Below, one piece after another: positions 1 to 60,816 of a stretch of DNA of 64,000 nucleotides; within the stretch, counting starts at the first letter, position 1, and every line of letters begins with the position of its first letter. Source of the DNA: Eledone cirrhosa (lineage: Eukaryota); NCBI GenBank assembly GCA_964016885.1, contig OZ024742.1, positions 308,946,001 to 309,010,000 of the forward strand, read 5' to 3'. Under the pieces are notes generated by a model that had not been told where the DNA came from, made no database searches, and worked only from the letters and a program-made list of their open reading frames with translations. The translations under genes and the position numbers were made by a program.

Positions 1-3000
1 AGACAGAGACAGACAGAGACAAGCAGAGACAGAGACAGACAGAGACAGAGACAGACAAAGACAGACAGAGACAGAGACAGACAGAGTCAAGCAGAGACAG
101 AGACAGACAGAGACAGACAGAGGCAGAGACAGACAGAGACAGACAGAGACAGACAGAGACATACAGAGACAGACAGAGACAGACAGAGACAACAGAGACT
201 AACAGAGACAGAGACAGGCAGAGACAGACAGAGACAGAGAGAGACAGACAGAGACAGAGACAGAGACAGAGACTGACAGAGACAGGGAGAGACAGAGACT
301 GACAGAGACAGAGAGAGACAGACAGAGACAGAGACAGACAGAGACTGACAGAGACAGACAGAGACAGACAGAGACTGACAAAGACAGAGAGAGACAGACA
401 GAGACAGACAGAGACAGATACAGGCAGACACAGACAGAGACAGAGACAGACAGAGACAGACAGAGACAGATACAGGCAGAGACAGACAGAGACAGACAGA
501 GACAGTGAAAGGGAGAGAGAGACAGAGACAGACAGAGACAGAGACAGGCAGAGACAGACAGAGACAGAGAGAGACAGACAGAGACAGGGACAGAGACTGA
601 CAGAGCCAGAGACAGACAGAGACAGGCAGAGACAGACAGAGACAGACAGAGACAGACAGAGACAGACAGAGACAGACAGAGACAGACAGAGACAGAGACA
701 GAGACAGACAGAGACAGACAGAGACAGAGACAGACAGAGACAGACACAGACAGACAGAGACAGACAGAGAAAGACAGAGACAGACAGAGACAGAGACAGA
801 GACAGACAGAGACAGACAGAGACAGAGACAGAGACAGACAGAGACAGACAGTGACAGAGACAGACAGAGACAGACAGAGACAGACAGAGACAGAGACAGA
901 GACAGACAGAGACAGAGAGAGACAGACAGAGACAGAGACAGACAGAGACTGACAGAGACAGACAGAGACAGCTAGAGACTGACAAAACAGAGAGAGACAG
1001 ACAGAGACAGACAGAGACAGATACAGGCAGAGACAGACAGAGACAGAGACAGACAGAGACAGACAGAGACAGATACAGGCAGAGACAGACAGAGACAGAC
1101 AGAGACAGAGACAGGCAGAGACAGACAGAGACAGAGAGAGACAGACAGAGACAGAGACAGAGACTGACAGAGCCAGAGACAGACAGAGACAGGCAGGGAC
1201 AGACAGAGACTGACAGAGACAGAAACAGGCAGAGATAGACAGAGACAGACAGAGACAGAGACAAAGACTGAGAGAGACAGAGACAGACAGAGACTGACAG
1301 AGACAAAGACAGACAGACAGAGACAGAGACAAAGACTGACAGAGACAGAGACAGACAGAGACTGACAGAGACAGAGAGAGACAGACAGAGACAGAGACAG
1401 ACAGAGACTGACAGAGACAGACAGAGACAGCGAGAGACAGACAGAGACAGAGACAGAGACAGACAGAGACAGACAGAGACAGACAGAGACAGAAAAAGAC
1501 AGAGAGAGACAGAGACTGACATAGACTGAGAGAGACAGACAGAGACAGAGACAGAGACAGACCGAGACTGACAGAGACAGAGAGAGACAGAGACATACAG
1601 AGACAGACAGAGGCCCAGACAGACAGAGACAGACAGAGACCGACAGAGACAGACAGAGACAGACAGAGACTGACAGAGACAGAGAGAGACAGACAGCGAC
1701 AGAGACAGAGACAGAGACAGACAGAGAGAAAGAGACAGACAGAGACAGACAGAGACAGAGACAGGCAGAGAGAGACAGAGACAGACAGTGACAGAGACAG
1801 GCAGAGACAGACAGAGACATACAGAGACATACAGAGACAGACAGAGACAGACAGAGACAGACACAGGCAGAGACAGAGAGAGACAGAGAGAGACAGACAG
1901 AGACAGAGACAGAGACTGACAGAGACAGACAGAGACAGGCAGAGACAGACAGAGACAGAGACAGAGACAGACAGAGACAGACAGAGACTGACAGAGACAG
2001 AGAGAGACAGAGACTGACAGAGACTGACAGTGACAGACAGACACAGACAGAGACAGAGACAGGCAGAGACAGACAGAGACAGACAGAGACAGGCAGAGAC
2101 AGACAGAGACAGAGACAGAGACAGACAGAGACAGACAGAGACTGACAGAGACAGAGAGAGACAGAGACTGACAGAGACTGACAGTGACAGAGAGAGACAG
2201 ACAGAGACAGACAGAGACTGACAGAGACAGAGAGAGACAGAGACTGACAGAGACAGAGAGAGACAGAGGCAGAGACAGGCAGAGACAGACAGAGACAGAC
2301 AGAGACTCACAGAGACAGACAGAGACTCACAGAGACAGAGACAGGCAGAGACAGACAGAGATTGAGACAGAGACAGACAGAGACAGACAGAGACAGACAG
2401 AGACAGACAGAGGCAGAGACAGACAGAGACAGAGACAGAGACAGACAGAGACAGACAGAGTCTGACAGAGACAGAGAGAGACATAGACTGACAGAGACTG
2501 ACAGTGACAGAGAGAGACAGACAGAGACAGACAGAGGCAGAGACAGTCAGAGACAGACAGAGACAGACAGAGACTGACAGAGACAGAGAGAGACAGAGAC
2601 TGACAGAGACAGAGAGAGACATACAGAGACAGACAGAGACAGAGACAGACAGAGACAGACAGAGACAGAGACAGACAGAGACAGACAGACACAGACAGAG
2701 GCAGAGACAGACAGAGACAGACAGAGACTGACAGAGACAGAGACAGACAGAGACAGACAGAGACTGACAGAGACAGAGACAGACAGAGACTGACAGAGAC
2801 AGAGACAGACAGACAGAGACAGACAGAGACTGACAGAGACAGAGAGAGACAGAGACTGACAGAGACAGAGAGAGACATACAGAGACAGACAGAGACAGAC
2901 AGAGACAAGCAGAGACAGAGACAGACAGAGACAGAGACAGACAAAGACAGACAGAGACAGAGACAGACAGAGTCAAGCAGAGACAGAGACAGACAGAGAC

Positions 3001-5409
3001 AGACAGAGGCAGAGACAGACAGAGACAGACAGAGACAGACAGAGACATACAGAGACAGACAGAGACAGACAGAGACAACAGAGACTAACAGAGACAGAGA
3101 CAGGCAGAGACAGACAGAGACAGAGAGAGACAGACAGAGACAGAGACAGAGACAGAGACTGACAGAGACAGGGAGAGACAGAGACTGACAGAGACAGAGA
3201 GAGACAGACAGAGACAGAGACAGACAGAGACTGACAGAGACAGACAGAGACAGACAGAGACTGACAAAGACAGAGAGAGACAGACAGAGACAGACAGAGA
3301 CAGATACAGGCAGACACAGACAGAGACAGAGACAGACAGAGACAGACAGAGACAGATACAGGCAGAGACAGACAGAGACAGACAGAGACAGTGAAAGGGA
3401 GAGAGAGACAGAGACAGACAGAGACAGAGACAGGCAGAGACAGACAGAGACAGAGAGAGACAGACAGAGACAGGGACAGAGACTGACAGAGCCAGAGACA
3501 GACAGAGACAGGCAGAGACAGACAGAGACAGACAGAGACAGACAGAGACAGACAGAGACAGACAGAGACAGAGACAGAGACAGACAGAGACAGACAGAGA
3601 CAGAGACAGACAGAGACAGACAGAGACAGACAGAGACAGACAGAGAAAGACAGAGACAGACAGAGACAGAGACAGAGACAGACAGAGACAGACAGAGACA
3701 GAGACAGAGACAGAGACAGAGACAGACAGAGACAGACAGAGACAGACAGAGACAGACAGAGAAAGACAGAGACAGACAGAGAAAGACAGAGACAGAGACA
3801 GGCAGAGACATACAGAGAGAAAGAGACAGACAGAGACAGACAGAGACAGAGACAGGCAGAGAGAGACAGAGACAGACAGAGACAGAGACAGGCAGAGACA
3901 GACAGAGACAGACAGAGACAGACAGAGACAGACACAGGCAGAGACAGAGAGAGACAGAGAGAGACAAACAGAGACAGAGACTGACAGAGACAGAGAGAGA
4001 CAGAGAGAGGCAGAGACAGACAGAGACTGACAGAGACAGAAACAGGCAGAGACAGACAGAGACAGACAGAGACAGAGACAGAGACTGACAGAGACAGAGA
4101 AAGACAGAGACTGACAGAGACAGAGAGAGACAGACAGAGACAGAGACAGAGAGAGAGACAAAGACTGACAGAGACAGAGAGAGACAGACAGAGACAGAGA
4201 CAGTGACAGACAGAGACTGACAGAGACAGACAGAGACAGACAGAGACAGCGAAAGACAGACAGAGACAGAGACAGAGACAGAGACAGACAGAGACAGACA
4301 GAGACAGACAGAGACTGACAAAGACAGAGAGGGACAGAGACTGACAGAGACTGAGAGAGACAGACAGAGACAGTGACACAGACAGACAGAGACAGACAGA
4401 GACAGAGACAGGCTGAGACAGACAGAGACAGACAGAGACAGACAGAGACAGAGACAGGCAGATACAGACAGAGACATACAGAGACAGACAGAGACGGACA
4501 GAGATAGACAGAGACAGAGACAGGCAGAGACAGACAGAGACAGAGAGAGACAGACAGAGACAGAGACAGAGACTGACAGAGCCAGAGAGAGACAGAGACA
4601 GGCAGAGACAGACAGAGAGAGACAGAGACAGACAGAGACAGAGACAGAGACAGACAGAGACAGAGAGAGACAGAGACTGACAGAGACAGAGAGAGACAGA
4701 CAGAGACAGAGACAGACAGAGACTGACAGAGACAGACAGAGACAGAGAGAGACAGAGACTGACAGAGACAGAGAGAGACAGACAGAGACAGAGACAGACA
4801 GAGACTGACAGAGACAGACAGAGACAGCGAGAGACAGACAGAGACAGAGACAGAGACAGAGACAGACAGAGAAAGACAGAGACAGACAGAGACTGACAAA
4901 GACAGAGAGAGACAGACAGAGACAGAGACAGAGACAGACCGAGACTGACAGAGACAGAGAGAGACAGAGACATACAGAGACAGACAGAGACAGAGACAGA
5001 CAGAGACAGACAGAGACAGACAGAGACTCACAGAGACAGAAAGAGACAGACAGAGACTGACAGAGACAGAGAGAGACAGAGACATACAGAGACAGACAGA
5101 GACAGACAGAGACAGAGACAGGCAGAGACAGACAGAGACAGACAGAGACAGACAGAGACAGAGAGAGACAGAGACATACAGAGACAGACAGAGACAGACA
5201 GAGACAGAGACAGGCAGATACAGACAGAGACAGACAGAGACAGACAGAGACACGCAGAGACAGACAGAGACAGACAGAGACAGGCAGAGACAGACAGAGA
5301 CTGACAGAGACAGACAGAGACACACAGAGACAGAGACAGGCATAGACAGACAGAGATTGAGACAGAGAGAGACAGACAGAGACAGAGACAGACAGAGACA
5401 GACAGAGAC

Positions 5410-5440
<31 letters not shown>

Positions 5441-6495
5441 CAGACAGAGACAGACAGAGACTGACAGAGACAGACAGAGACAGACAGAGACAGACAGAGA
5501 CAGACAGAAACAGAGACAGAGACAGACAGAGACAGACAGAGACAGACAGAGACAGACAGAGACAGAAAGAGACTGACAGGGACAGAGAGAGACAGAGACT
5601 GACAGAGACAGAGAGAGACAGAGACTGACAGAGACAGAGAGAGACAGACAGAAACAGAGACAGACAGAGACAGACAGAGACAGACAGTGACAGACAGAGA
5701 CAGACAGAGACAGCGAGAGACAGACAGAGACAGAGACAGAGACAGAGACAGACAGAGACAGACAGAGACAGACAGAGACAGACAGAGACAGACAGAGACA
5801 GAGACAGACAGAGACAGACAGAGACAGAGAGAGAGAGACAGAGACAGAGACAGACAGCGACAGACAGAGACAGACAGAGACAGAGAGAGACAGACAGAGA
5901 CAGAGACAGACAGAGACAGACAGAGATAGACAGAGACAGACAGAGACAGACAGAGACAGAGACAGACAGAGACAGACAGAGACAGAGAGAGAGAGACAGA
6001 GACAGAGACAGACTGAGACAGACAGAGACTGACAGAGACAGAGAGAGGCCGACAGAGACAGAAAGAGACTGACAGAGAGACAGAGACAGACAGAGACAGA
6101 CAGAGACAGAGAGAGTCAGAGAGAGACAGACAGAGACAGAGACCGAGACAGACAGAGACAGACAGAGACAGACAGAGACAGAAAGAGACTGACAGAGAGT
6201 CAGAGACAGACAGAGACAGACAGAGACAGAGAGAGTCCGACAGAGACAGAGACAGACAGAGACAGACAGAGACTGACAGAGTCAGAGAGAGACAGACAGA
6301 GACAGACAGAGTCAGAGAGAGACAGACAGAGACAGAGACACAGACAGACAGAGACAGACAGAGACAGAAAGAGACAGAAACAGAGACAGAGACAGAGACA
6401 GATACAGAGACAGAAGGAGACAGACAGAGACAGAAAGAGACAGACAGAATACAGACAGAGACAGACAGAGACAAACAGAGGGACAGAGACAGACA
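1..6495. repeat. (AGAC)n/(AGAGAC)n compound satellite with higher-order internal duplication
   Basis: Continuous AGAC/AGAGAC units. Rare variants (agtcaagcag at 85 and 2971; gtgaaaggga at 505 and 3391) recur at a 2886-bp offset. The long Ser/Leu/Val/Cys ORFs are artefacts. Confidence 0.97.
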
Positions 6496-6762
6496 AAAGA
6501 AAACGAAAGAGAAAGAGTTGGTGGAATTCTGAACAATATCTAATGAAGATTGCTTATGATGGGACTACGATCTTGTAATATTGAATATTTACAGTCATGT
6601 AACGTGCGTACAAGACTATCTGTACACACACTCAAAAATAGTACCATGGTACTACTGAATGAGTACTCAATATTTGTAACTAGAGAGTAAATGTTAATTT
6701 CTTGGTAGAAAATTGTCAGTGACTTCGAAGTTTCAGCTTCGTCGTTTCATGTGTGTGTGAGT

Positions 6763-31618: not shown

Positions 31619-31848
31619 ACTATTAAATCTCTCCCAAGGTAACTCTCTCTTGTGTTGTTATTTTTATTTTATCCTTTATACTCTTCCCTTCATTCTACAC
31701 ATCTCACACATCTTATACACACCACGCATCTCAACGTACACCCACTTACATCTCTCTCTCCACCACCGGGCCTTGTTACCCGGAGATTTACCCATTTGCA
31801 TTGTCGAGGCTTCCAAACGACTTAAAGATATTTACTTATTGTTCCACA

Positions 31849-34472
31849 ATGCTTCAAGCAAACTTCAATACTCTCTTATCCATACACCTGAGCCAGGAAT
31901 TGTTTGCATCCGTAAGGGAACTGTTTAGACTGTCGGAGAAATGGGCCAACGCTGGCTGCCAAATTATTTTCCTGAAACGCTGCCTAAAAAACGATGTCAT
32001 CCCCAACACCATCAAGAACATCCGCTTACCAGTAAGCCTACGTACACCAGCCTTCCAAAACACCACTAACCGCATACATCGCACGTGTATTAAACAGATC
32101 CTGAGACATCTCAACCGCCAATTACACGTCTATAAGCGGACACTCTCAGAGCGGACACATCGACTGCCAATAGCACCCGGAGACTTGCTCCTAAAAATCA
32201 CTAAAGCAATCGACCAGTGCTACCACTCCAGAGTCCAATACGAGAAAAAACGGCTCAAGCGAAAATATGAGTGGATCTTGTCGAAACGCCACAACGAGAA
32301 CATCGACACTAACGAACAGACGGACCAGAACCACGTGGAAAACAACAACTTAACAACCACCACCGCCGCAACCACCAACACCGAGCCATACCTCAACGAT
32401 GCGACGCACCTGGTCACCGACCTAACCAGCACTCTCACGAGCGACGAGCTGAAACTCCTACACCTCGGACCTAAGTTCATCGTCACACAACGTCTTGACG
32501 ACAGACTCAAACTCAACATCGAGGCCAACTTTTGTCGAGCCGCCTACCAACTTAAATGGGTGACCGCTATCAACAGCGCCACAGATAATAACAGCGCCGA
32601 CACAACCCACCCCAAGTTCCCCACTTACCACCCCGACAACCCACTCCACCCCCCACCCACCAACCACGAACTCGACACTAAACTCATCAGGCTAAAACAC
32701 TCCATCTCGGATATACTTCACAAACACACACACACACGCACAACACATAACCTCACCAAATCTCAACTCACCACACTCTCCAACCTAAAATCGAAGAACT
32801 TCATCTATCTCCCCTCCGACAAGGGAAAAGAATTCTGCGTCATCAGCAGAGAGGCCTACAACACCCTGGCCCTCCAACACCTTGACGATGACAACCTCTA
32901 CTCCAAGGTCACGGGAATCACTCCCGCGCAGATAGAAGAACACATCAACTCCGCCTGGACCAACATCTGCGACCGGCGGAAGCTCCCGAAGAAGCTGAGA
33001 TACAACCTCCTCACGAGGAACAGCAGACTACCCGCCTTCTACTACCTCGTGAAAACACACAAACAGGGACCCGACCTGAAAATCAGGCCCATCGTATCGA
33101 GCGTGGAGGGACCACTCTACAAAATTTCATGGCTCCTAGCCAGAATACTCAAACCCATCTTAGACACCTTGCCGGGACACGTTAACAGCTCCGAGGAGGT
33201 GTTGAAGTGCCTGCATCAAATGGATCCCGACACCAGAAGGAATAACAGATATGCCTTCAGCCATGATGTAGTCGCCCTCTACACCTCGGTCCCGGCACTC
33301 CCGGCCGTCAATATACTAATGGAACGCGTCCAATCTACCGACCTACACTGCTTCGGGCTCACCACCACTGACATCCACCAACTCCTATCCATCGTCGTCG
33401 ACAACACCTACTTCGGATTCCTTGACCAAATATACCAACAAACCTCGGGATTGCCCATGGGATCAAGCCTATCAGGTGTGCTAGCGATCTCCTACATGGA
33501 CAACCTCGAACGCAAGGCACTCAACGCCTGCCACCCCAACGCCGTAGCCTTTTTCTCAAGATACGTGGACGATATCCTCATCCTCACATCTTCCCAAGAC
33601 ACGGCGAACAGAATCTATGAGACGTTCAACAACACGGACGAGAACATTGACTTCAGTGTTGAACACCCCAACGAAGACGGGTCACTTGCCCTCCTCGACT
33701 TCCGAATCAACATCACGGAACAAGGAGGGATCCACTGCAACTTCTACAGAAAGGCAGCCTGCAGGGACCTATTCGTTCACTACAAGTCCGCCCTCCCTAA
33801 CAGTGCCAAAAGAGGATACATCACGAACGAGATCGCGCGAATCAAAAGCAGATGCAGCGATCCCGCGAGTGGTGTCACTCATACCAAGCGATTCCTCGAG
33901 GTCCTGGAGACGAACGGGTACCCTACCTCGATCACAGACAGAATAGGAGACACCAGACGCAAGGGACAGAGAAGCACCCAAGGCAAGTGCTTCCTTAAAA
34001 TGCCACACCTGGGCGAGAAAACCACCAACGCTATCCGCAGGCTATACGGAGGGAGGGCCTCGACATCCACCTGGCCCACTCGGGCCCCTCCCTGCGAAGA
34101 TGCCACTCCAGGAAACCCAAAAAATCTACTGACGCATGCTCCCTCAGAGACTGCCCGATACGCCATGCTAACTGTTGCCTACGCACATACGTCGTGTATA
34201 AGATAGAATGTGACAGGTGCAACCAATACTACATAGGTAGCACAATTCGACCTTTGCACATCCGGATCAAAGAACACACTAAAACCAGGGCCTCGTCTTT
34301 CCGGAAACACATAGACAAATGCGGAAACAAAGTCGGAAGGCCCATTGTTACAATTCTAGCGACTGAAAGAAACGTCGGCACGTTACGTATCAAGGAAGCG
34401 CTTTTTATCAAACGACTGCAACCGCAAATAAACAACCGATCAGAGAGAAGCGAAATGAAATGGCTGGTTTAA
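31849..34472 (+). pseudogene. PLE reverse transcriptase + GIY-YIG endonuclease, one frameshift at about 34041
   Basis: PSDKG, KTHK..IRPIVS, SHDVVALYT, GLPMGS, RYVDD, LLD, FYRK. Adding one G at cagg|ctata joins the ORF to AIRREGLDI..CSLRDCP..CC..VVYKIECDRCNQYYIGSTIRPLHIRIKEH. Confidence 0.93.
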
Positions 34473-35157: not shown

Positions 35158-35563
35158 TACGGCTTCCTAAAACTGTATTTCTTTGGAGATACGAAATATT
35201 TATACATATTGTATAAAGCTATGCTTGAAGCAAAATCCAATTTCTTTTTATTATAAGTTGACCCAACTTATGCAGCTTCATATGCAAATGAGATTAATCA
35301 CCTCATTGACACAGACGAGAAAACTATATATTCTCGCCTGTCTTCTAGTCCAGCAGTTGCAAGCGGTGGGGCGGGGCGTCCTGACGAAGGCCAGCTAAGC
35401 CTGAAATGCATAGACGGTTGTCCCCCTTGCTTCTGCTGGACATCACCAGAGGGCGTTATCCCCCCCGGTGTTTGCATAGCTACGGCTTCCTAAAACCGTA
35501 TTTCTTTAGAGATACGAAATACTTATACATATTGTATAAAGCTATGCTTGAAGAAAAATCCTG

Positions 35564-36108: not shown

Positions 36109-36486
36109 CTTTATTATTATTATACTCCTCTTGGTCGAGATAAAATTTTGTCGTTTTGACTGCTGCTATTTATAGTGGTAGTAGACTGACCTCCCAGCCT
36201 CTGCTTCTATCTTTACACACGGCACTGGACAGAATTGCTTCCACATCATTCATTCTCATCTCGGGAACAATTTTGAATAGCGCCAGTTCGTAATTTGAAC
36301 TCGGGAATGTTTATATTCTCCGAGTGAAAAGAACCTTCTGACGAGAGTTTATCTTTTCAATGGAAGGCCGCAATGACTGTCCATTTATTTTTGAGACTCG
36401 AAACCGATTCGGTAAAGGTAACCATAGTGAGTACAGTGAATCTTTTGAAATTTATTTTGAAACTTTTTCTTATTTGCTAAACCTTG

Positions 36487-37949: not shown

Positions 37950-38297
37950 TAAACGGAAAAAATGAAACGAAATTTCATTTCTCACTCTTAGTACGGCTGT
38001 TACTTAAATATAAGTATGTATACGTACATACATATATGTATACAGGCGTACAGTAGAATGTATATATATATATATACATACATTCACACATATATATATG
38101 TACGTATGGATTCACCGAACATTTATTATAATGCTCGGTGTGTTTGTAAACAAACATCCCGAATTAAGCCGTACAGTGTCTAGCAACCATCGTTGCTCAT
38201 TTGTTCAACACTGACAAAGGAACGCTGTACTAGTTTCAAGCTTATTAGCTATCGTCAGCAACGTATACCTTCCTGCCAGATGGTTGAACGTCTGAAA
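37950..38297 (-). mobile_element. Family G retrozyme-like element, partial monomer
   Basis: Matches 59781-60125; hammerhead at 38223-38263. Confidence 0.8.
38223..38263 (-). ncRNA. Canonical minimal type I hammerhead ribozyme (family G)
   Basis: Reverse complement: cgttg-CTGACGA-t agct aata agct t-GAAA-ctag-TA-cagcg; palindromic stem III ACTAGT. Confidence 0.85.
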
Positions 38298-46980: not shown

Positions 46981-47625
46981 TAAACGGAATAGAAAATGCT
47001 GACAAATATCCCCCACACACTTACAGACACATTCCTACTGACCATCCCTCTACCACGAATTACTCTGCTACACACACACACTTGTCTTAATAGGCATTTG
47101 AACTGTCAACAGTCTGCGGTTCACACACACATCTCTGCTGACCATTATCACAACAACGAACCTCTTTACTACTACTACACACACACACACACATATTTGT
47201 TAGACTTATTTCTCAGTCAGCCGACACAAACCTACATTTGGCGCAAAATCAATTTTTTTACATTCACATGACATCTACCGACCAATCAAAATTGTTTTGA
47301 CCACAAGCATTTTTGCAACACGAATTGGCGCAAAACTTATTTTAATACCACTGGCGCCACTTTTTTAACATAAAAACAGGTAGAATTCCCAAAACTAATC
47401 AGATCAGAGCAAACATCACGGACGCTCTATCTCAAAATTATTTTTGAGAAGCATTAGAAATGCGCAACCGGTAAAACTTAAAACCAAAACTTAATACTAA
47501 CCAATACTATTACTAATTATCACTTATTCCTAATTAAACTATTTTTCACTGTGAACAATTTGTCAGCATTTTCTATTCCGTTTACTAATATATCATAACT
47601 TGTGTGTTACACCTCTATTCTTTTA
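46975..47625 (+). mobile_element. PLE pLTR-like insert in (TA)n with 33-bp inverted arm and tail (family F)
   Basis: Arms 46975-47007 and 47558-47591; tail to 47625; decayed hammerhead TTGAGAA-gcat/atgc-GCAA-ccgg-TA at 47441-47476. Confidence 0.6.
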
Positions 47626-47654
47626 AATATATATATATATATATATATATATAG

Positions 47655-48026: not shown

Positions 48027-48058
<32 letters not shown>

Positions 48059-48063
<5 letters not shown>

Positions 48064-48283
48064 AGAAAAAAGAAAATCAGTGTTGCGACGAAAGGAATTT
48101 ATTGGACATATTACAATTGTTTCTCGGCCGACCAGCTCGAGGCACGATCGATGTGGTGATCAAACCTGTGATGATCACCACATCGATCGTGCTTCGAGCT
48201 GGTCACCCGAAAAACAATTGTAATATGTCCAATAAATTCTTTTCGTCGCAACACTGATTCTCTTTTTTCTGTGATATCATACT
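48059..48283. mobile_element. ~220-bp near-perfect palindrome in (TA)n (family B); inverted duplicate at 53914-54139
   Basis: atcacagaaaa..gtggtgatca aacctgtga tgatcaccac..ttttctgtgat. Confidence 0.85.
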
Positions 48284-48310: not shown

Positions 48311-48351
<41 letters not shown>

Positions 48352-49567
48352 AACCAGTAAGACCCCGATAGCTGAGCTCAAGCCGTTTCGACGGCTAATT
48401 CTGGACTAAATGAAAATTTATCCTGGTATTTAAATAGCCGATCTTCTCAAGGGGTAATTCCATATATGGTCAAAGTGATTGTCAAAAATCAGTAGTAATT
48501 CTGTGGTTGCAAATTAGTAGGGGAGATGGTGGCTAAACCTGCCAGTAGGAGAAAGAGGGGAGGGGGTGGAGTAGACCCAATCAAGCGTTGGTAGTGCCAG
48601 CTACAGCTGGGCATGAGGTCAAAGAAGATACAGGGGAGGGGGAGGGGGAGGAAGTCGGAACGGTAGGTAGAACAATGGGGGGTAGAAATATATAGGAAAG
48701 AAAAAATACTGAGAGTGAAGAAAAGCAAATAAGTGTAAAGAAAAAAGTAAAGTAAATTAAATTCTACGACCTAGGTCTCAGGCTATTGTTAGGCTAGAAT
48801 AAAATAAAGGAAGAAAGAAAGAAGTAAAGAAATAAATAAAGAAAGAAATAACGAAATAAGTAAAAGAACTAGGTGGGACGGGATAGGCAAGGACCCTTTT
48901 AAGAGGTATAAGTACGTAAATGATACGGTGACGGGTCAACAAAAGGGGCCAAAATACTAAAGAGACTACCACGAAATAAACAATAAAGGTTTCCATCCCG
49001 GGCCAGCAACGACCCAGTGCAGCAAAGTGAACTTGTACGAGATAATAATTCTGAGTCCCGAGAAAAATATATACTAATGCTAACTCTAAAAGATCTAAAA
49101 CAAGCTACATGAAAGTTCGTACGAAATAAAGGTAGAATACGGAGAAATAAATTCAGAATCCACCCCGCCCAGAAGAAAAGCGAAGCAAGACATACTGAAA
49201 CGAAAAAATAAGGCATAAGTGCCACTAAGAAATATAGAGGGCACAGAGAATAGTGGGTGCGGTCGGAAAAAGGGGGCAAGTATCCGGGGTCTAAGCCAAC
49301 TGCTATAAAGGGCGGGGTCCGCCAAATCTATCATAGACTAGGGGAGGGGGTGGTGGGGGTACTAAGGCTACATGGGGCCAAAGGGCAGCCTCGGGTGGGC
49401 GAGAAAAGACGCCGACAAAGGAGAAGAGCTGGGGTAGAAGGACAAAGGAGAGAGGGGGGAAGGAAATAAAGGAAGCGATAAAAGAATACAAAGAAGATCT
49501 TACGTCTTCCTTGGCAAGCAGGGGTTACCCATTGCAAAATCGGCAAGTGGGGTGTTATAGCCCTAGT

Positions 49568-50470
49568 CTACCCCCCCCCCCCCCCCGGATCATTATGGGG
49601 TTTGAGGGCGAGGTAAGTCCTACGCAATCTATGTTTACATGCAGTAACCAGTTCATCTTTCTTGTTTAGGAGTTTGTCCGTCGAAAACAGCATTTGTAAA
49701 GTTTCCTTCGAGCATAAATTGCACGGACGGCGTCCTCCCGTGTAAGAATTGGCTCTGGACAGTAATCTCCAAGTGAGATCATAGGTGATGTTGTTGTCCT
49801 TGAGGTCCCATATGTGGCCCGAAAGTGTAGTGGCGTGACGCCGGGCCGGGTTTCGGAAGGTATGTCTATGTTGGTATAGCCGGGTCTTGAAGTCACATGC
49901 GGTAAGTCCTATATAGGCTTTGTTGGAGGTATCCGTCCTCACGTTGCACTGGTAGATCACATTACGGTCTCTGCATCTATTGTCGAGTGGGCAAATAGAT
50001 CTATCCGGGCAGTTACACCTCCTGGTCGGTTCTCCACTGCTATTTAGGTTATTTCTGCCATCGGGGTTGAGTTTTTTGTTGTTAGAGGAGACGATGTTTT
50101 GTGCGAAGTTTGGTGTAGTGCTGTAAGAGAGTTTGATGGTATTTTTGTTAATTATGTTGTGGTAGCGGTGTTGTAATGGGAAGTGTTTTTCAATGAGCCT
50201 AAAGAATAGTTTCCCGATGGGAGTAGTCACCTCTGCGTTGTGGGGAGGATTGAACCATGTTACATTGCGTGAGCGGCGGTGTCTCCTGCTGGTTCCGCTA
50301 ATGGGAGCTGGACAGTAGGATATTTCCTCCCGGAAACCACTCCGCTTGAGGGCCTGGTTGTAATAAGGCGCATGTTCATCGAATATCCGCTCATTAGCTG
50401 ACAAACGGGATATGCGGAGGGAGATGTTTTTGACCAGGTTGTTTGTGATGTTCCTGGGATGGTTTGATCG
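49568..50470 (-). pseudogene. Inverted duplicate of the thumb/GIY-YIG part of the same PLE ORF
   Basis: Translation is nearly identical to the C-terminal ~300 aa of 50464-52428. Confidence 0.93.
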
Positions 50471-52428
50471 CACCCTTCGAGAATGACCTCTTCCAACTGG
50501 TCAAGAACATTAAATTTAAACCCAGACACAACCGATTCCTACAAAAACTCCGTAGCAACTTAACAGAGTATGATAACACAAATGACATCATGGTGCATTC
50601 GGATAAAACTGGGAACCTATACTTTGTCAACCCTGACAGATACCACACACTGATCAGGAGCAGCCTAAACTCCACCTATAAAAAGGCCAACCACTCTTGC
50701 ATCGAGGACATAAATCGAGATGGACAACAAATCACCTCCAGCCTCGGGGTCGCCGACCGCACGGAACCTCTAGACCCACGGACACCATACTTCACACTGA
50801 AGGACCATAAATCCGATTTTGACCGTAAACCCTCTATCAGGCTTATTAACCCAACGAAGTCCGACATAGGGAGAATCAGCAAAAAAATCCTAGACCGCGT
50901 GATACCAAAAGTCAAGCAACACACCCGACTTAGCCTATGGATCAACACCCAGGAAGTAATCTCCTGGTTCAGCAATATGGAGGATAAACGAGAAACTAAA
51001 TTCATACAGTTCGATATAGAGAGCTACTATGCTTCAATCACCTTACCGCTACTTACTGCCGCCTTGGACTTCGCCGAAACACTTGTGCCCATCACCGACC
51101 AGGAAAGAAAAATCATCCTCCACGCCAGGAAGACAGTCTTACTCTTTGACGACTCTAAATGGATAAAAAGAGCTCCCGACTCACCCTTCGACGTCAGCAT
51201 GGGCGCCACGGATTCGGCGGAGGTCACAGATCTTATAGGATTATTCCTAATAGCCAAACTCACTGATATGTTTCCTGCATTCGGTGGTGGATTGTACCGT
51301 GATGATGGGCTCCTTACCCTTAAAGGGTACAACCCCAGTAGTACAGATCGGGTCCGGAAACAATTAATCAGATTCTTCCGCGACTGGGGATTTAAAATAA
51401 CCCTACAAACGTCCCTGACCCGAATAAACTTCCTGGACGTGACCCTCGACCTCGAAAACGACCTGTACTACCCATACAGGAAACCTAATGACAATCTGCA
51501 CTACATCCACCGCCGATCAAACCATCCTAGGAACATCACAAACAACCTGGTCAAAAACATCTCCCTCCGCATATCCCGTTTGTCAGCTAATGAGCGGATA
51601 TTCGATGAACATGCGCCTTATTACAACCAGGCCCTCAAGCAGAGTGGTTTCCGGGAGGAAATATCCTACTGTCCGGCTCCCATTAGCGGAACCAGCAGGA
51701 GACACCGCCGCTCACGCAATGTAACATGGTTCAATCCTCCCCACAACGCAGAGGTGACTACTCCCATCGGGAAACTATTCTTTAGGCTCATTGAAAAACA
51801 CTTCCCATTACAACACCGCTACCACAACATAATTAACAAAAATACCATCAAACTCTCTTACAGCACTACACCAAACTTCGCACAAAACATCGTCTCCTCT
51901 AACAACAAAAAACTCAACCCCGATGGCAGAAATAACCTAAATAGCAGTGGAGAACCGACCAGGAGGTGTAACTGCCCGGATAGATCTATTTGCCCACTCG
52001 ACAATAGATGCAGAGACCGTAATGTGATCTACCAGTGCAACGTGAGGACGGATACCTCCAACAAAGCCTATATAGGACTTACCGCATGTGACTTCAAGAC
52101 CCGGCTATACCAACATAGACATACCTTCCGAAACTCGGCCCGGCGTCACGCCACTACACTTTCGGGCCACATATGGGACCTCAAGGACAACAACATCACC
52201 TATGATCTCACTTGGAGATTACTGTCCAGAGCCAATTCTTACACGGGAGGACGCCGTCCGTGCAATTTATGCTCGGAGGAAACTTTACAAATGCTGTTTT
52301 CGACGGACAAACTCCTAAACAAGAAAGATGAACTGGTTACTGCATGTAAACATAGATTGCGTAGGACTTACCTCGCCCTCAAACCCCATAATGATCCGGG
52401 GGCGGGGGGGGGTAGACTAGGGCTATAA
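50464..52428 (+). CDS. PLE reverse transcriptase + C-terminal GIY-YIG (uninterrupted but N-terminally truncated by the inversion junction)
   Basis: SDKT, TLKDHK..IRLINP, QFDIESYY, VSMGA, YRDDGL, NFLDV, WFNPP, CNC-x5-C-x5-C, VIYQ..YIGLT..FKTRLYQH, CNLC..E. Confidence 0.88.
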   Translation: MIAPFENDLFQLVKNIKFKPRHNRFLQKLRSNLTEYDNTNDIMVHSDKTGNLYFVNPDRYHTLIRSSLNSTYKKANHSCIEDINRDGQQITSSLGVADRTEPLDPRTPYFTLKDHKSDFDRKPSIRLINPTKSDIGRISKKILDRVIPKVKQHTRLSLWINTQEVISWFSNMEDKRETKFIQFDIESYYASITLPLLTAALDFAETLVPITDQERKIILHARKTVLLFDDSKWIKRAPDSPFDVSMGATDSAEVTDLIGLFLIAKLTDMFPAFGGGLYRDDGLLTLKGYNPSSTDRVRKQLIRFFRDWGFKITLQTSLTRINFLDVTLDLENDLYYPYRKPNDNLHYIHRRSNHPRNITNNLVKNISLRISRLSANERIFDEHAPYYNQALKQSGFREEISYCPAPISGTSRRHRRSRNVTWFNPPHNAEVTTPIGKLFFRLIEKHFPLQHRYHNIINKNTIKLSYSTTPNFAQNIVSSNNKKLNPDGRNNLNSSGEPTRRCNCPDRSICPLDNRCRDRNVIYQCNVRTDTSNKAYIGLTACDFKTRLYQHRHTFRNSARRHATTLSGHIWDLKDNNITYDLTWRLLSRANSYTGGRRPCNLCSEETLQMLFSTDKLLNKKDELVTACKHRLRRTYLALKPHNDPGAGGGRLGL

Positions 52429-53527
52429 CACCCCACTTGCCGATTTTGCAATGGGTAACCCCTGCTTGCCAAGGAAGACGTAAGATCTTCTTTGTATTCT
52501 TTTATCGCTTCCTTTATTTCCTTCCCCCCTCTCTCCTTTGTCCTTCTACCCCAGCTCTTCTCCTTTGTCGGCGTCTTTTCTCGCCCACCCGAGGCTGCCC
52601 TTTGGCCCCATGTAGCCTTAGTACCCCCACCACCCCCTCCCCTAGTCTATGATAGATTTGGCGGACCCCGCCCTTTATAGCAGTTGGCTTAGACCCCGGA
52701 TACTTGCCCCCTTTTTCCGACCGCTCCCACTATTCTCTGTGCCCTCTATATTTCTTAGTGGCACTTATGCCTTATTTTTTCATTTCAGTATGTCTTGCTT
52801 CGCTTTTCTTCTGGGCGGGGTGGATTCTGAATTTATTTCTCCGTATTCTACCTTTATTTCGTACGAACTTTCATGTAGCTTGTTTTAGATCTTTTAGAGT
52901 TAGCATTAGTATATATTTTTCTCGGGACTCAGAATTATTATCTCGTACAAGTTCACTTTGCTGCACTGGATCGTTGCTGGCCCGGGATGGAAACCTTTAT
53001 TGTTTATTTCGTGGTAGTCTCTTTAGTATTTTGGCCCCTTTTGTTGACCCGTCACCGTATCATTTATGTACTTATACCTCTTAAAAGGGTCCTTGCCTAT
53101 CCCGTCCCACCTAGTTCTTTTACTTATTTCGTTATTTCTTTCTTTATTTATTTCTTTACTTCTTTCTTTCTTCCTTTATTTTATTCTAGCCTAACAATAG
53201 CCTGAGACCTAGGTCGTAGAATTTAATTTACTTTACTTTTTTCTTTACACTTATTTGCTTTTCTTCACTCTCAGTATTTTTTCTTTCCTATATATTTCTA
53301 CCCCCCATTGTTCTACCTACCGTTCCGACTTCCTCCCCCTCCCCCTCCCCTGTATCTTCTTTGACCTCATGCCCAGCTGTAGCTGGCACTACCAACGCTT
53401 GATTGGGTCTACTCCACCCCCTCCCCTCTTTCTCCTACTGGCAGGTTTAGCCACCATCTCCCCTACTAATTTGCAACCACAGAATTACTACTGATTTTTG
53501 ACAATCACTTTGACCATATATGGAATT

Positions 53528-53621
53528 ACCCCTTGAGAAGATCGGCTATTTAAATACCAGGATAAATTTTCATTTAGTCCAGAATTAGCCGTCGAAACGG
53601 CTTGAGCTCAGCTGTCGGGGT
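53528..53621 (+). ncRNA. Type I hammerhead with compensatory U3-A8 core (UUGAGAA); mirror copy 48362-48455 (-)
   Basis: Stem I acccc/ggggt; TTGAGAA; stem II ga(t)cggcta/tagccgtc; GAAA 53594-53597; stem III acggct/agctgt; GUC 53614-53616. Confidence 0.82.
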
Positions 53622-54134
53622 CTTACTGGTTCCTATTACCCACTCTACTACCTCAAGTATTGAGTACTTTGGTGCGTTATGGTCCACCTGGTTCCTTACC
53701 TCATTTCCTTCGTTATATATATATATATATAGTAATAATAATAAATTTGAAGACTAAAATTCAAAGAGGGCTCGATAAGGGTGAAAGCAGCGATTCTTTG
53801 CTTAAACTTTAATCTGTTATTTTAATAAATATATATATATATAATTGGTGTTGGATGCTTAAAGCGTCCGTATGCGGTAGGCCGTTTGAGCACTCGGTGC
53901 CCTCATGGAGCAGAGTATGATATTACAGAAAAAAAGAGAATCAGTGTTGCGACGAAAAGAATTTATTGGACATATTACAATTGTTTCTCGGGTGACCAGC
54001 CCGAAGCACGATCGATGTGGTGATCACCACAGGTTTGATCACCACATCGATCGTGCCTCGAGCTGGTCGCCCGAGAAACAATTGTAATATGTCCAATAAA
54101 TTCCTTTCGTCGCAACACTGATTTCCTTTTTTCT

Positions 54135-54171
<37 letters not shown>

Positions 54172-55159: not shown

Positions 55160-55863
<704 letters not shown>

Positions 55864-59782: not shown

Positions 59783-60816
59783 AATGGAAAAGAATGAAAG
59801 GAAATTTCATTTCTCACTCTTAGTACGGCTGATACTTAAATGTAAGTATGTATACGTACATACATATATGTATACAGACGTACAGTAGTATGTATATATA
59901 TATACATACATGCACACATATATATATGTACGTATGGGTTTACCGAACATTTATTATAATGTTCGGTTTGTTTGTAAACAAACAGCCAGAATTAAGCCGT
60001 ACAGTGTTCGGCAACCATCGTCGCCCTTTTGTTCAACACTGACAAAGGAACGATGAACTAGTTTCAAGCTTATTAGCTATCGTCAGCATCGTATACCTTC
60101 CTGTCAGATGATTGAACGTTTGAAAGTATATACTTTCCTTATGCATATTAACGGCCGAGCAGCCTAATTTGCATATCGAGTGAGTTAGTCGGCCGGGCGT
60201 ACCGAAAACGATAAATGGAAAAGAATGAAATGAAATTTCCTTTCTCACTCTTAGTACGTGTGATACGTACATACATATATGTATACAGATGTACAGTAGT
60301 ATGTATATATATACATACATGCACACATATATATAAATGTACGTATGGGTTTATCGAACATTTATTATAATGTTCGGTTTCTTTGTAAACAAACAGCCAG
60401 AATTAAGCCGTACTAAGAGTGAGAAATGAAATTTCATTTCATTCTTTTCCATTTATCGTCAGTACGCCCGGGCGACTAACTCACTCGATATGCAAATTAG
60501 GCTGCTCAGCCGTTAATATGCATAAGGAAAGTATATACTTTCAGACCTTCAACCATCTGGCAGGAAGGTATACGATGATGACGATAGCTAATAAGCTTGA
60601 AACTAGTTCATCGTTCCTTTGTCAGTGTTGAACAAAAGGGCGACAATGGTTGCCGAACACTGTACGGCTTAATTCTGGCTGTTTGTTTACAAACAAACCG
60701 AACATTATAAAAAATGTTCGGTAAACCCATACGTACATATATATATGTGTGCATGTATGTATATATATACATACTACTGTACGTCTGTATACATATATGT
60801 ATGTACGTATACATAC

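Follow-up and report, generated by a model that had tools for sequence, protein, structure and literature searches.

Hammerheads of Penelope-like elements (PLEs) have been described from several lineages. Those of Hydra-clade PLEs (Craig et al. 2021, PMC8557442) are sense-strand type I motifs near the 3′ end of elements that insert into (TA)n. The motifs listed in File S2 of that work all read CUGANGA with a C3-G8 pair, and have a stem III of 3–4 bp, a stem III loop of 1–3 nt and a loop II of 3–10 nt. Replacement of this pair by U3-A8 is in itself ordinary: it has been published for natural hammerheads, where the covariation from C3-G8 to U3-A8 is reported to be active in vitro (Perreault et al. 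2011, PMC3088659), and for PLE hammerheads, with about 1,300 U3-A8 matches in Schistosoma mansoni (Cervera and de la Pena 2014, PMC4209133). The S. mansoni Cercyon elements carry the swap in the terminal repeat, where a standard descriptor misses it, and their minimal hammerheads have a palindromic helix III region without a real stem III. Fungi and protists have monomer-type PLE hammerheads with a large, stable helix III, and monomer cleavage was measured for Serpula lacrymans; the host elements are endonuclease-free and telomeric, and the core is canonical (PMC4209133). In the Poseidon element PAc of Anolis, a member of another clade in which the hammerhead overlaps the ORF start, cutting requires protein, and the RT starts at two internal sites on uncut RNA; hammerhead mutants, namely engineered C3G and G8C, do not block insertion in vitro (PMC11167929). 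Further literature on hammerheads and PLEs includes PMC6765202, PMC3884650, PMC7229834, PMC7151607 and bioRxiv 10.64898/2026.07.22.740005.

The locus described here lies in a 64,000-nt stretch of the genome of Eledone cirrhosa, referred to as the window (GCA_964016885.1, contig OZ024742.1, positions 308,946,001–309,010,000 of the forward strand). Its features are listed in Table 1, where hammerhead positions follow the standard scheme, in agreement with PMC4209133. Sequence motifs, compared with published Hydra proteins by eye only, identify the element as a Hydra-clade PLE. A single ORF encodes an RT with a C-terminal endonuclease (YRDD and the endonuclease motifs were recognized by eye). The protein (P0003) contains SDKT, hence DKT and not DKG, as well as RWR, and no GxKF; published Hydra proteins show RWK or RWR (PMC8557442). 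The linker contains CNCPDRSIC (CxCX5C), CNLC (CxxC) and CKH (CxH), with no CCHH. Insertion into (TA)n is found at both ends in the window and in further copies. Pfam returned zero matches for this ORF, and a canonical RT4 match is not expected for the Hydra clade. The motif architecture, the inverted 5′-truncated partner, the one-sided tail, the protein motifs and the (TA)n target are all as in the Hydra-clade PLEs of PMC8557442, whereas the 3′ UTR of more than 1 kb and the 3.5-kb unit are not. Members of this clade tend to be shorter than 3 kb and to carry a canonical hammerhead, and the present element, with its 3,531-bp unit and variant core, departs from this tendency, which is not a strict criterion.

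Table 1. Features of the Hydra-clade insertion and of the family F end in the window
Feature	Position	Strand	Remarks
RT + endonuclease ORF, Hydra-clade PLE	50470-52428 (frame open from 50449)	+	open; lacks roughly 70 N-terminal residues relative to the 717-aa protein
Long 3′ UTR / pLTR	52429-53715	+	ends in (TA)n, roughly 99 nt past C17
Type I hammerhead motif in 3′ pLTR	53528-53621	+	three stems, stem I open, around core
Stem I	ACCCC 53528-53532 / GGGGU 53617-53621	+	sequence
5′ core half U3-U4-G5-A6-G7-A8-A9	53533-53539	+	sequence
Extended stem II	53540-53593	+	54-nt span; G10.1-C11.1 pair at 53540/53593
Stem II outer helix	53543-53551 / 53583-53591	+	plus bulged U; fold and alignment
Competing hairpin AGCCGU / ACGGCU	53587-53602	+	predicted; buries GAAA core strand
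GAAA (G12 A13 A14 A15.1)	53594-53597	+	sequence
Stem III	53597-53602 / 53610-53615	+	6 bp including one G.U; 7-nt loop
Loop III palindrome GAGCUC	53604-53609	+	
GUC with U16.1 and C17	C17 at 53616	+	predicted cut between 53616 and 53617
One-sided tail, absent from mirror copy	53637-53715	+	sequence comparison
Small hairpin	ACTC 53642-53645 / GAGT 53662-53665	+	in one-sided tail, just behind short end
Inverted 5′-truncated copy, same insertion	48347-50470	-	ends in (TA)n, roughly 20 nt past C17
Mirror hammerhead	48362-48455	-	private G16.2A at 48369; pair 15.2-16.2 broken
Terminus of another PLE, which has RT and GIY-YIG	47004-47653	+	hosts family F motif
Family F hammerhead-like motif	47441-47476	+	U3-A8, 5-bp stem II, palindromic ACCGGU

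Over 647 residues, the ORF in the window shares 99% identity with an intact protein of 717 aa encoded at another place in the genome. Since this copy lacks a start codon and a 5′ repeat, it is not a source element. Its two arms differ by 11 substitutions and one indel in 2,124 aligned columns. One of these substitutions is G16.2A in the mirror hammerhead, which an earlier note on this DNA had put forward as a natural comparison. The change is present, but it belongs to a decayed duplicate: A is found at 16.2 in other rows too (3 of 51 and 3 of 62), and we can rule out a selected variant in favor of ordinary decay. The two copies are located on opposite strands, and therefore cannot dimerize within one transcript. 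The whole insertion is flanked by a 240-nt fold-back element (48027-48268 and 53930-54171) with 98% mutual complementarity.

The motif itself lies about 1.1 kb downstream of the RT-endonuclease frame. The core residues U4 G5 A6, A9 and G12 A13 A14, the A15.1-U16.1 pair and H17 are all in place, and positions 3 and 8 form a Watson-Crick U3-A8 pair in both window copies. The interior of stem II is a variable 31-nt inner loop or hairpin, and the A10.2-U11.2 pair of this stem occurs only in the window subfamily. A descriptor with U3-A8 finds this motif as its single match on both strands of the 64 kb; 60 block shuffles gave 0.067 loose matches per 64 kb and none with stems I and III of at least 5 bp. 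The minimum-energy fold by RNAfold is the three-way junction, with an unremarkable z-score of -0.9. Thus, the proposal that a Hydra-clade PLE ends here in a type I hammerhead with a U3-A8 core and long stems II and III agrees with what is seen in the sequence. With its UUGAGAA core, the motif also escapes CUGANGA searches as anticipated, and Rfam is equally blind to it: no hammerhead was returned at this site with E up to 10 (301 nt searched), and none appears among the matches listed (150 of 215 rows).

In contrast to the File S2 motifs of PMC8557442, the 3-8 pair here is U3-A8 or, as described below, C3.A8; stem III has 5–6 bp and a 7-nt loop, and stem II spans 54 nt. The U3-A8 swap in a terminal repeat that standard descriptors miss and the palindrome in the helix III region are shared with Cercyon, while the real stem III is not. 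This length also separates the motif from minimal dimer-type hammerheads, in which stem III is absent or 1–2 bp long, even though the palindromic stem-loop III of that type is present. The stable stem III is shared with the fungal and protist PLEs, but their lack of an endonuclease, telomeric location and canonical core are not.

Several other hammerhead-like sequences lie in the window. A compact canonical C3-G8 hammerhead with a 6-bp stem I is present twice, at 60056-60086 (-) and 38228-38258 (-); a palindromic ACUAGU replaces stem III, as is typical of PLE minimal motifs. A different family is represented at 36338-36414 (+) by a hammerhead with long stem II, short stem III and a canonical CUGACGA core. 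Further C3-G8 hammerhead-like matches were found at 35381-35412 (+), 55490-55524 (+) and 55316-55350 (-), the last two forming an inverted pair. An 859-residue frame at 31627-34206 (+) with an RT match, a DKG motif and inverted repeats on its flanks is likely another PLE, and positions 1-6600 are a long array of 8–16-nt repeat units.

The 3.0-Gb genome contains 7,219 exact matches to a 21-letter pattern covering the 5′ core, and none to a control pattern. While 5,422 of these cores carry U3-A8, 1,765 (24%) carry the mismatch C3.A8; 22 are U3.G8 and 10 are C3-G8. Position 8 is A in 99.6% of family matches, and G8 occurs at 0.56% and 0.40% on the two position-3 backgrounds, which is the level of decay. 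Since this background amounts to just 0.4–0.6%, the 24% share of C3 cannot be decay, and together with linked diagnostic sites it rules out C3.A8 as random decay. Contigs of run X1, which may be the source sample, also give a C3 share of 24% by depth. The swapped 3-8 pair noted earlier therefore holds for the window copies and not for the family as a whole; the more unusual fact, that a quarter of the family cores are C3.A8, had been missed. A natural C3.A8 lineage was not found in the mostly open-access literature searched; the string CUGANAA occurs once in PMC8490949. The consulted parts of PMC4209133 report neither C3.A8 or U3.G8 lineages nor a history of the pair for Cercyon, and the U3-A8 variants of PMC3088659 are, as far as that source was covered, scattered examples without a mismatched state amplified in a replicating lineage. 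It is this family record of a mismatched active-site pair, and not the U3-A8 swap, that is new.

Two sister families have the same hammerhead architecture. S2 gave 312 matches, the first 100 of which comprise 87 U3-A8, 10 U3.G8 and 3 C3-G8. S1 gave 5 matches to the pattern, 4 with C3-G8 and 1 with U3.G8, and further copies were found besides. In an alignment of 47 rows from the three families, 85.5% of the stem I–III cells are paired, and two-sided changes occupy 60 cells compared with 27.6 after shuffling (a number that none of 500 shuffles reached is thus 60), exceeding all slid controls; kinship of the sequences inflates these statistics, and decayed and truncated rows were kept. Covariation resides mainly in stems II and I, whereas stem III is conserved without covarying, and its sixth pair is intact in only 15 of 45 rows. 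Hence, conservation in the family, which the earlier note had named as a check, supports stems I–III across 47 copies. One locus (L202:1429-1526, -) joins an S2-type 5′ half to an old-family 3′ half, and may be an intermediate or a recombinant.

The end of the other PLE in Table 1 carries the family F motif. Its DKG and GxKF motifs, identified by eye, suggest a Neptune-type element. Stem I has 3 bp, all A-U, and position 13 is C (47465). Genome-wide, 4,105 of 4,180 family F matches have C13 (GCAA, not GAAA) and 24 have A13, so that the motif departs from the G12 A13 A14 of hammerheads. A13 is essential in hammerheads. General support for this requirement comes from PMC8490949, and the motif is likely a hammerhead relic. 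The UUGAGAA core had been said to recur in this family. The string is indeed present at 47444-47450, but it is a private change of one copy: G7 occurs in 0 of 29 other copies, and all 100 matches listed carry A at position 7.

Most insertions of the window family are stubs cut inside stem II without a 5′ core: the 3′ motif half has 39,772 exact matches as opposed to the 7,219 of the 5′ half. A strong truncation hot spot lies just inside loop II (window equivalent 53571-53582), with 3′-half stubs at least 5-fold over full cores, often arranged as head-to-head pairs. In a full-length copy, some 190 nt separate C17 of the 5′ repeat from the start codon; the 5′ UTR of one copy (L163:3016-3120) contains two small similar hairpins, each a few bases behind one insertion end point. 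The 5′ UTR is present in 30 copies. In 25 of these the sequence continues past C17 into a preceding unit; the others start downstream (3 copies), at C17 itself (1) or at -5 (1). No concentration of 5′ ends was seen at the cut site, where 1 of the 30 falls exactly and a second one lies no more than 5 nt away, so that genomic copies offer no direct evidence of cutting. One could surmise from this lack of concentrated ends, the abundance of insertions without a 5′ core and the spread of family F with C13 fixed that the motif is no longer a ribozyme in any subfamily, but a structure for protein binding or RT positioning in which positions 3, 7 and 8 drift. We consider this explanation very unlikely. 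Truncated copies are uninformative about source elements, all 47 rows, drawn from three families with widely different ORFs, retain U4 G5 A6 and A9, and paired states dominate among the four states of 3-8, with pairing regained.

The order of these states was read from ORF-only trees rooted on three S2 rows. They were limited to copies with enough linked ORF (37 of 144, then 32 and 38 rows), so that a family of thousands is sampled by 32–38 copies, the majority of which lie on one chromosome. The 32- and 38-row trees both form a ladder from old U3-A8 through C3.A8 to young U3-A8, with the window subfamily at its tip. In the 38-row tree, 14 C3 rows make up a contiguous middle of the ladder and one C3 row (L302) stands among the old U3 rows. 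An AU test rejected 10 C3 rows as a single clade (p 1e-41), which rules out C3.A8 as one side branch. Because U3-A8 copies branch below C3.A8, the trees also give no support to C3.A8 as the intermediate by which C3-G8 turned into U3-A8. A tree of 230 columns with a long-branched S1 outgroup and unsettled bootstrap places the family root at the young end, opposite to the ORF trees, but still puts C3.A8 between two U3-A8 groups. The same tree nests the G8 copies of S2 inside U3-A8, which would make G8 there a reversion, and the direction C3-G8 to U3.G8 to U3-A8 is not established for S2. Median arm-to-arm divergence is about 0.3% in the window subfamily (n = 2), 2.2% in young U3 (n = 8), 3.6% in C3 (n = 15) and 4.1% in old U3 (n = 7); these medians were taken by hand, with three mixed-state pairs and two repeated rows left out, and the group ranges overlap.

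The C3 stretch of the ladder measures about 0.056–0.057 changes per site, or about 47% of the trunk in the 32-row tree (hand sums). From early to late C3, majority changes in 326 codons comprise 32 synonymous and 10 non-synonymous ones (pS 0.149). The resulting pN/pS of 0.09, compared with 0.5–0.7 for terminal changes, shows that the C3.A8 masters encoded a protein under purifying selection. From old to late-C3 copies, the majority base changed at 16 of 73 sites in loop II and the flanks but at only 2 of 39 sites in the 3′ motif half (p 0.03), which thus stayed constrained. This comparison does not extend to the 5′ half, whose sequence was fixed by the search pattern. Position 7 is A, C or U in old U3-A8 copies and G in C3.A8 copies. 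This would fit an alternative register of the C3 core, in which N7 is deleted, G7 serves as G8 and an extra A precedes stem II; G7 is present in 56 of 62 C3 rows, but descent explains it as well.

Predicted folding follows the same division. Fold probabilities, calculated for the 67 of 108 grouped rows whose stems are unbroken, give a median full-hammerhead probability of 0.044 in old U3, 0.001 in early C3, 0.003 in late C3, 0.022 in young U3 and 0.50 in the window subfamily. They concern secondary structure only, ignore tertiary contacts, Mg2+ and protein, and penalize C3 copies by forcing the core to be unpaired. The competing hairpin, which can bury the GAAA strand owing to the similarity between the 3′ strands of stems II and III, is predicted to dominate in C3.A8 copies (0.56–0.84) and in the mirror copy. 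Folding as a monomer, proposed earlier from the long stems, is thus predicted for the youngest subfamily and appears peculiar to it.

We read these data, with a probability of about 60%, as follows: the U3-A8 hammerhead, predicted to cut after 53616, is a ribozyme whose cutting is useful but dispensable. Cutting is probably not essential because the lineage kept spreading with the mismatched C3.A8. A deep scan of another hammerhead found low activity for single changes of the 3-8 pair (PMC9901934), as is also the case in PMC11167929; taken together with the unaffected insertion in Anolis, this low activity leads us to regard cutting as helpful but not required. The size of the C3.A8 and A13C defects is taken in part from these two sources. 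Accordingly, the lineage likely spread with a probably crippled ribozyme and then re-paired it. One result of the deep scan counts against this reading: all double mutants except the G3-C8 swap were low in activity (PMC9901934), so that U3-A8 may itself be slow.

The main rival, which we consider clearly less likely, holds that C3.A8 is a tolerated active core, in which a C.A wobble supported by long stems and protein cuts fast enough, and that cutting was essential throughout. The other core positions and the stems did stay fixed through the C3 phase, although the stems may be fixed by protein binding near the RT start sites. The protein of the Anolis PLE assists cutting (PMC11167929), natural core variants that are weak in vitro can suffice in vivo (PMC3088659), and S2 contains a U3.G8 lineage as well. 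The low activity of single 3-8 mutants (PMC9901934, PMC11167929), the collapse of the predicted fold in C3 copies and the later return of the pair to Watson-Crick speak against an active wobble.

A second way to keep cutting in the C3 phase would be cleavage in trans, with strand exchange through the palindromic loop III allowing U3-A8 cores to cut C3.A8 transcripts. GAGCUC is kept in 35 of 47 rows even though the two preceding bases vary between families, and the stem III segment is predicted to form a duplex of -26.5 kcal/mol, as opposed to -5.0 kcal/mol per hairpin. These two observations make dimers possible despite the long stem III. PLE hammerheads have been reported to act as dimers (PMC4209133), and U3 and C3 repeats are mixed at loci L152, L018 and L117. 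On the other hand, L153 carries C3 in both repeats, stem III is long enough to close alone, and co-expressed partners at high local concentration would be required; we therefore hold cleavage in trans to be improbable.

If cutting is useful but dispensable, the element may replicate as follows. Transcripts would run through two terminal repeats, and the hammerhead would cut the RNA after the GUC at 53616. Cuts in both repeats would release a unit of 3,531 nt that could be closed to a circle, as in the model of PMC4209133, where cutting and joining make a circular template. The RT would initiate at internal positions of the RNA, some 20 or 99 nt past the cut, and copy back across the hammerhead, which would explain both the two alternative ends and the copies of more than one unit. 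Two internal start sites defining the tail have a precedent in Anolis PAc, where uncut RNA is the template (PMC11167929). With slow or absent cutting, uncut RNA with repeated ends could still serve in this way. The changes C3U, A10.2 and U16.3 of the youngest subfamily likely restored pair and fold. At L283:2046-9901 / L284, roughly 4.5 tandem units, each of 3,531 bp and carrying intact 717-aa ORFs, form an array. Neighboring units differ by 1 base in an alternating pattern (the first equals the third), which may reflect a two-unit template, duplication or assembly. Such tandem units fit a cut-and-joined circular template and an uncut repeated-end RNA with internal starts alike.

Hammerheads are near-universal in these elements, yet poor cutters in vitro and unneeded for insertion in the sole reconstituted system. 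The present family offers dated natural alleles (U3-A8, C3.A8, U3.G8 and C3-G8) in one scaffold, unlike the engineered mutants of Anolis. As each allele is tied to a countable lineage success, the role of the hammerhead becomes testable with a few short RNAs. Searches based on CUGANGA overlook thousands of such motifs per genome. In its strongest form, our interpretation is that C3.A8 was crippled and that an autonomous PLE lineage nevertheless replicated through it for about half of its trunk history, left more than 1,700 cores and later repaired pair and fold. We propose this tentatively, at somewhat worse than even odds. If true, the genome would hold a fossil series of a ribozyme active-site pair through both unpaired intermediates, with C3-G8, U3.G8 and U3-A8 in the sister families. 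It would also provide in vivo evidence that PLE retrotransposition needs no self-cleavage, for which family F, with A13C fixed, would be a second case.
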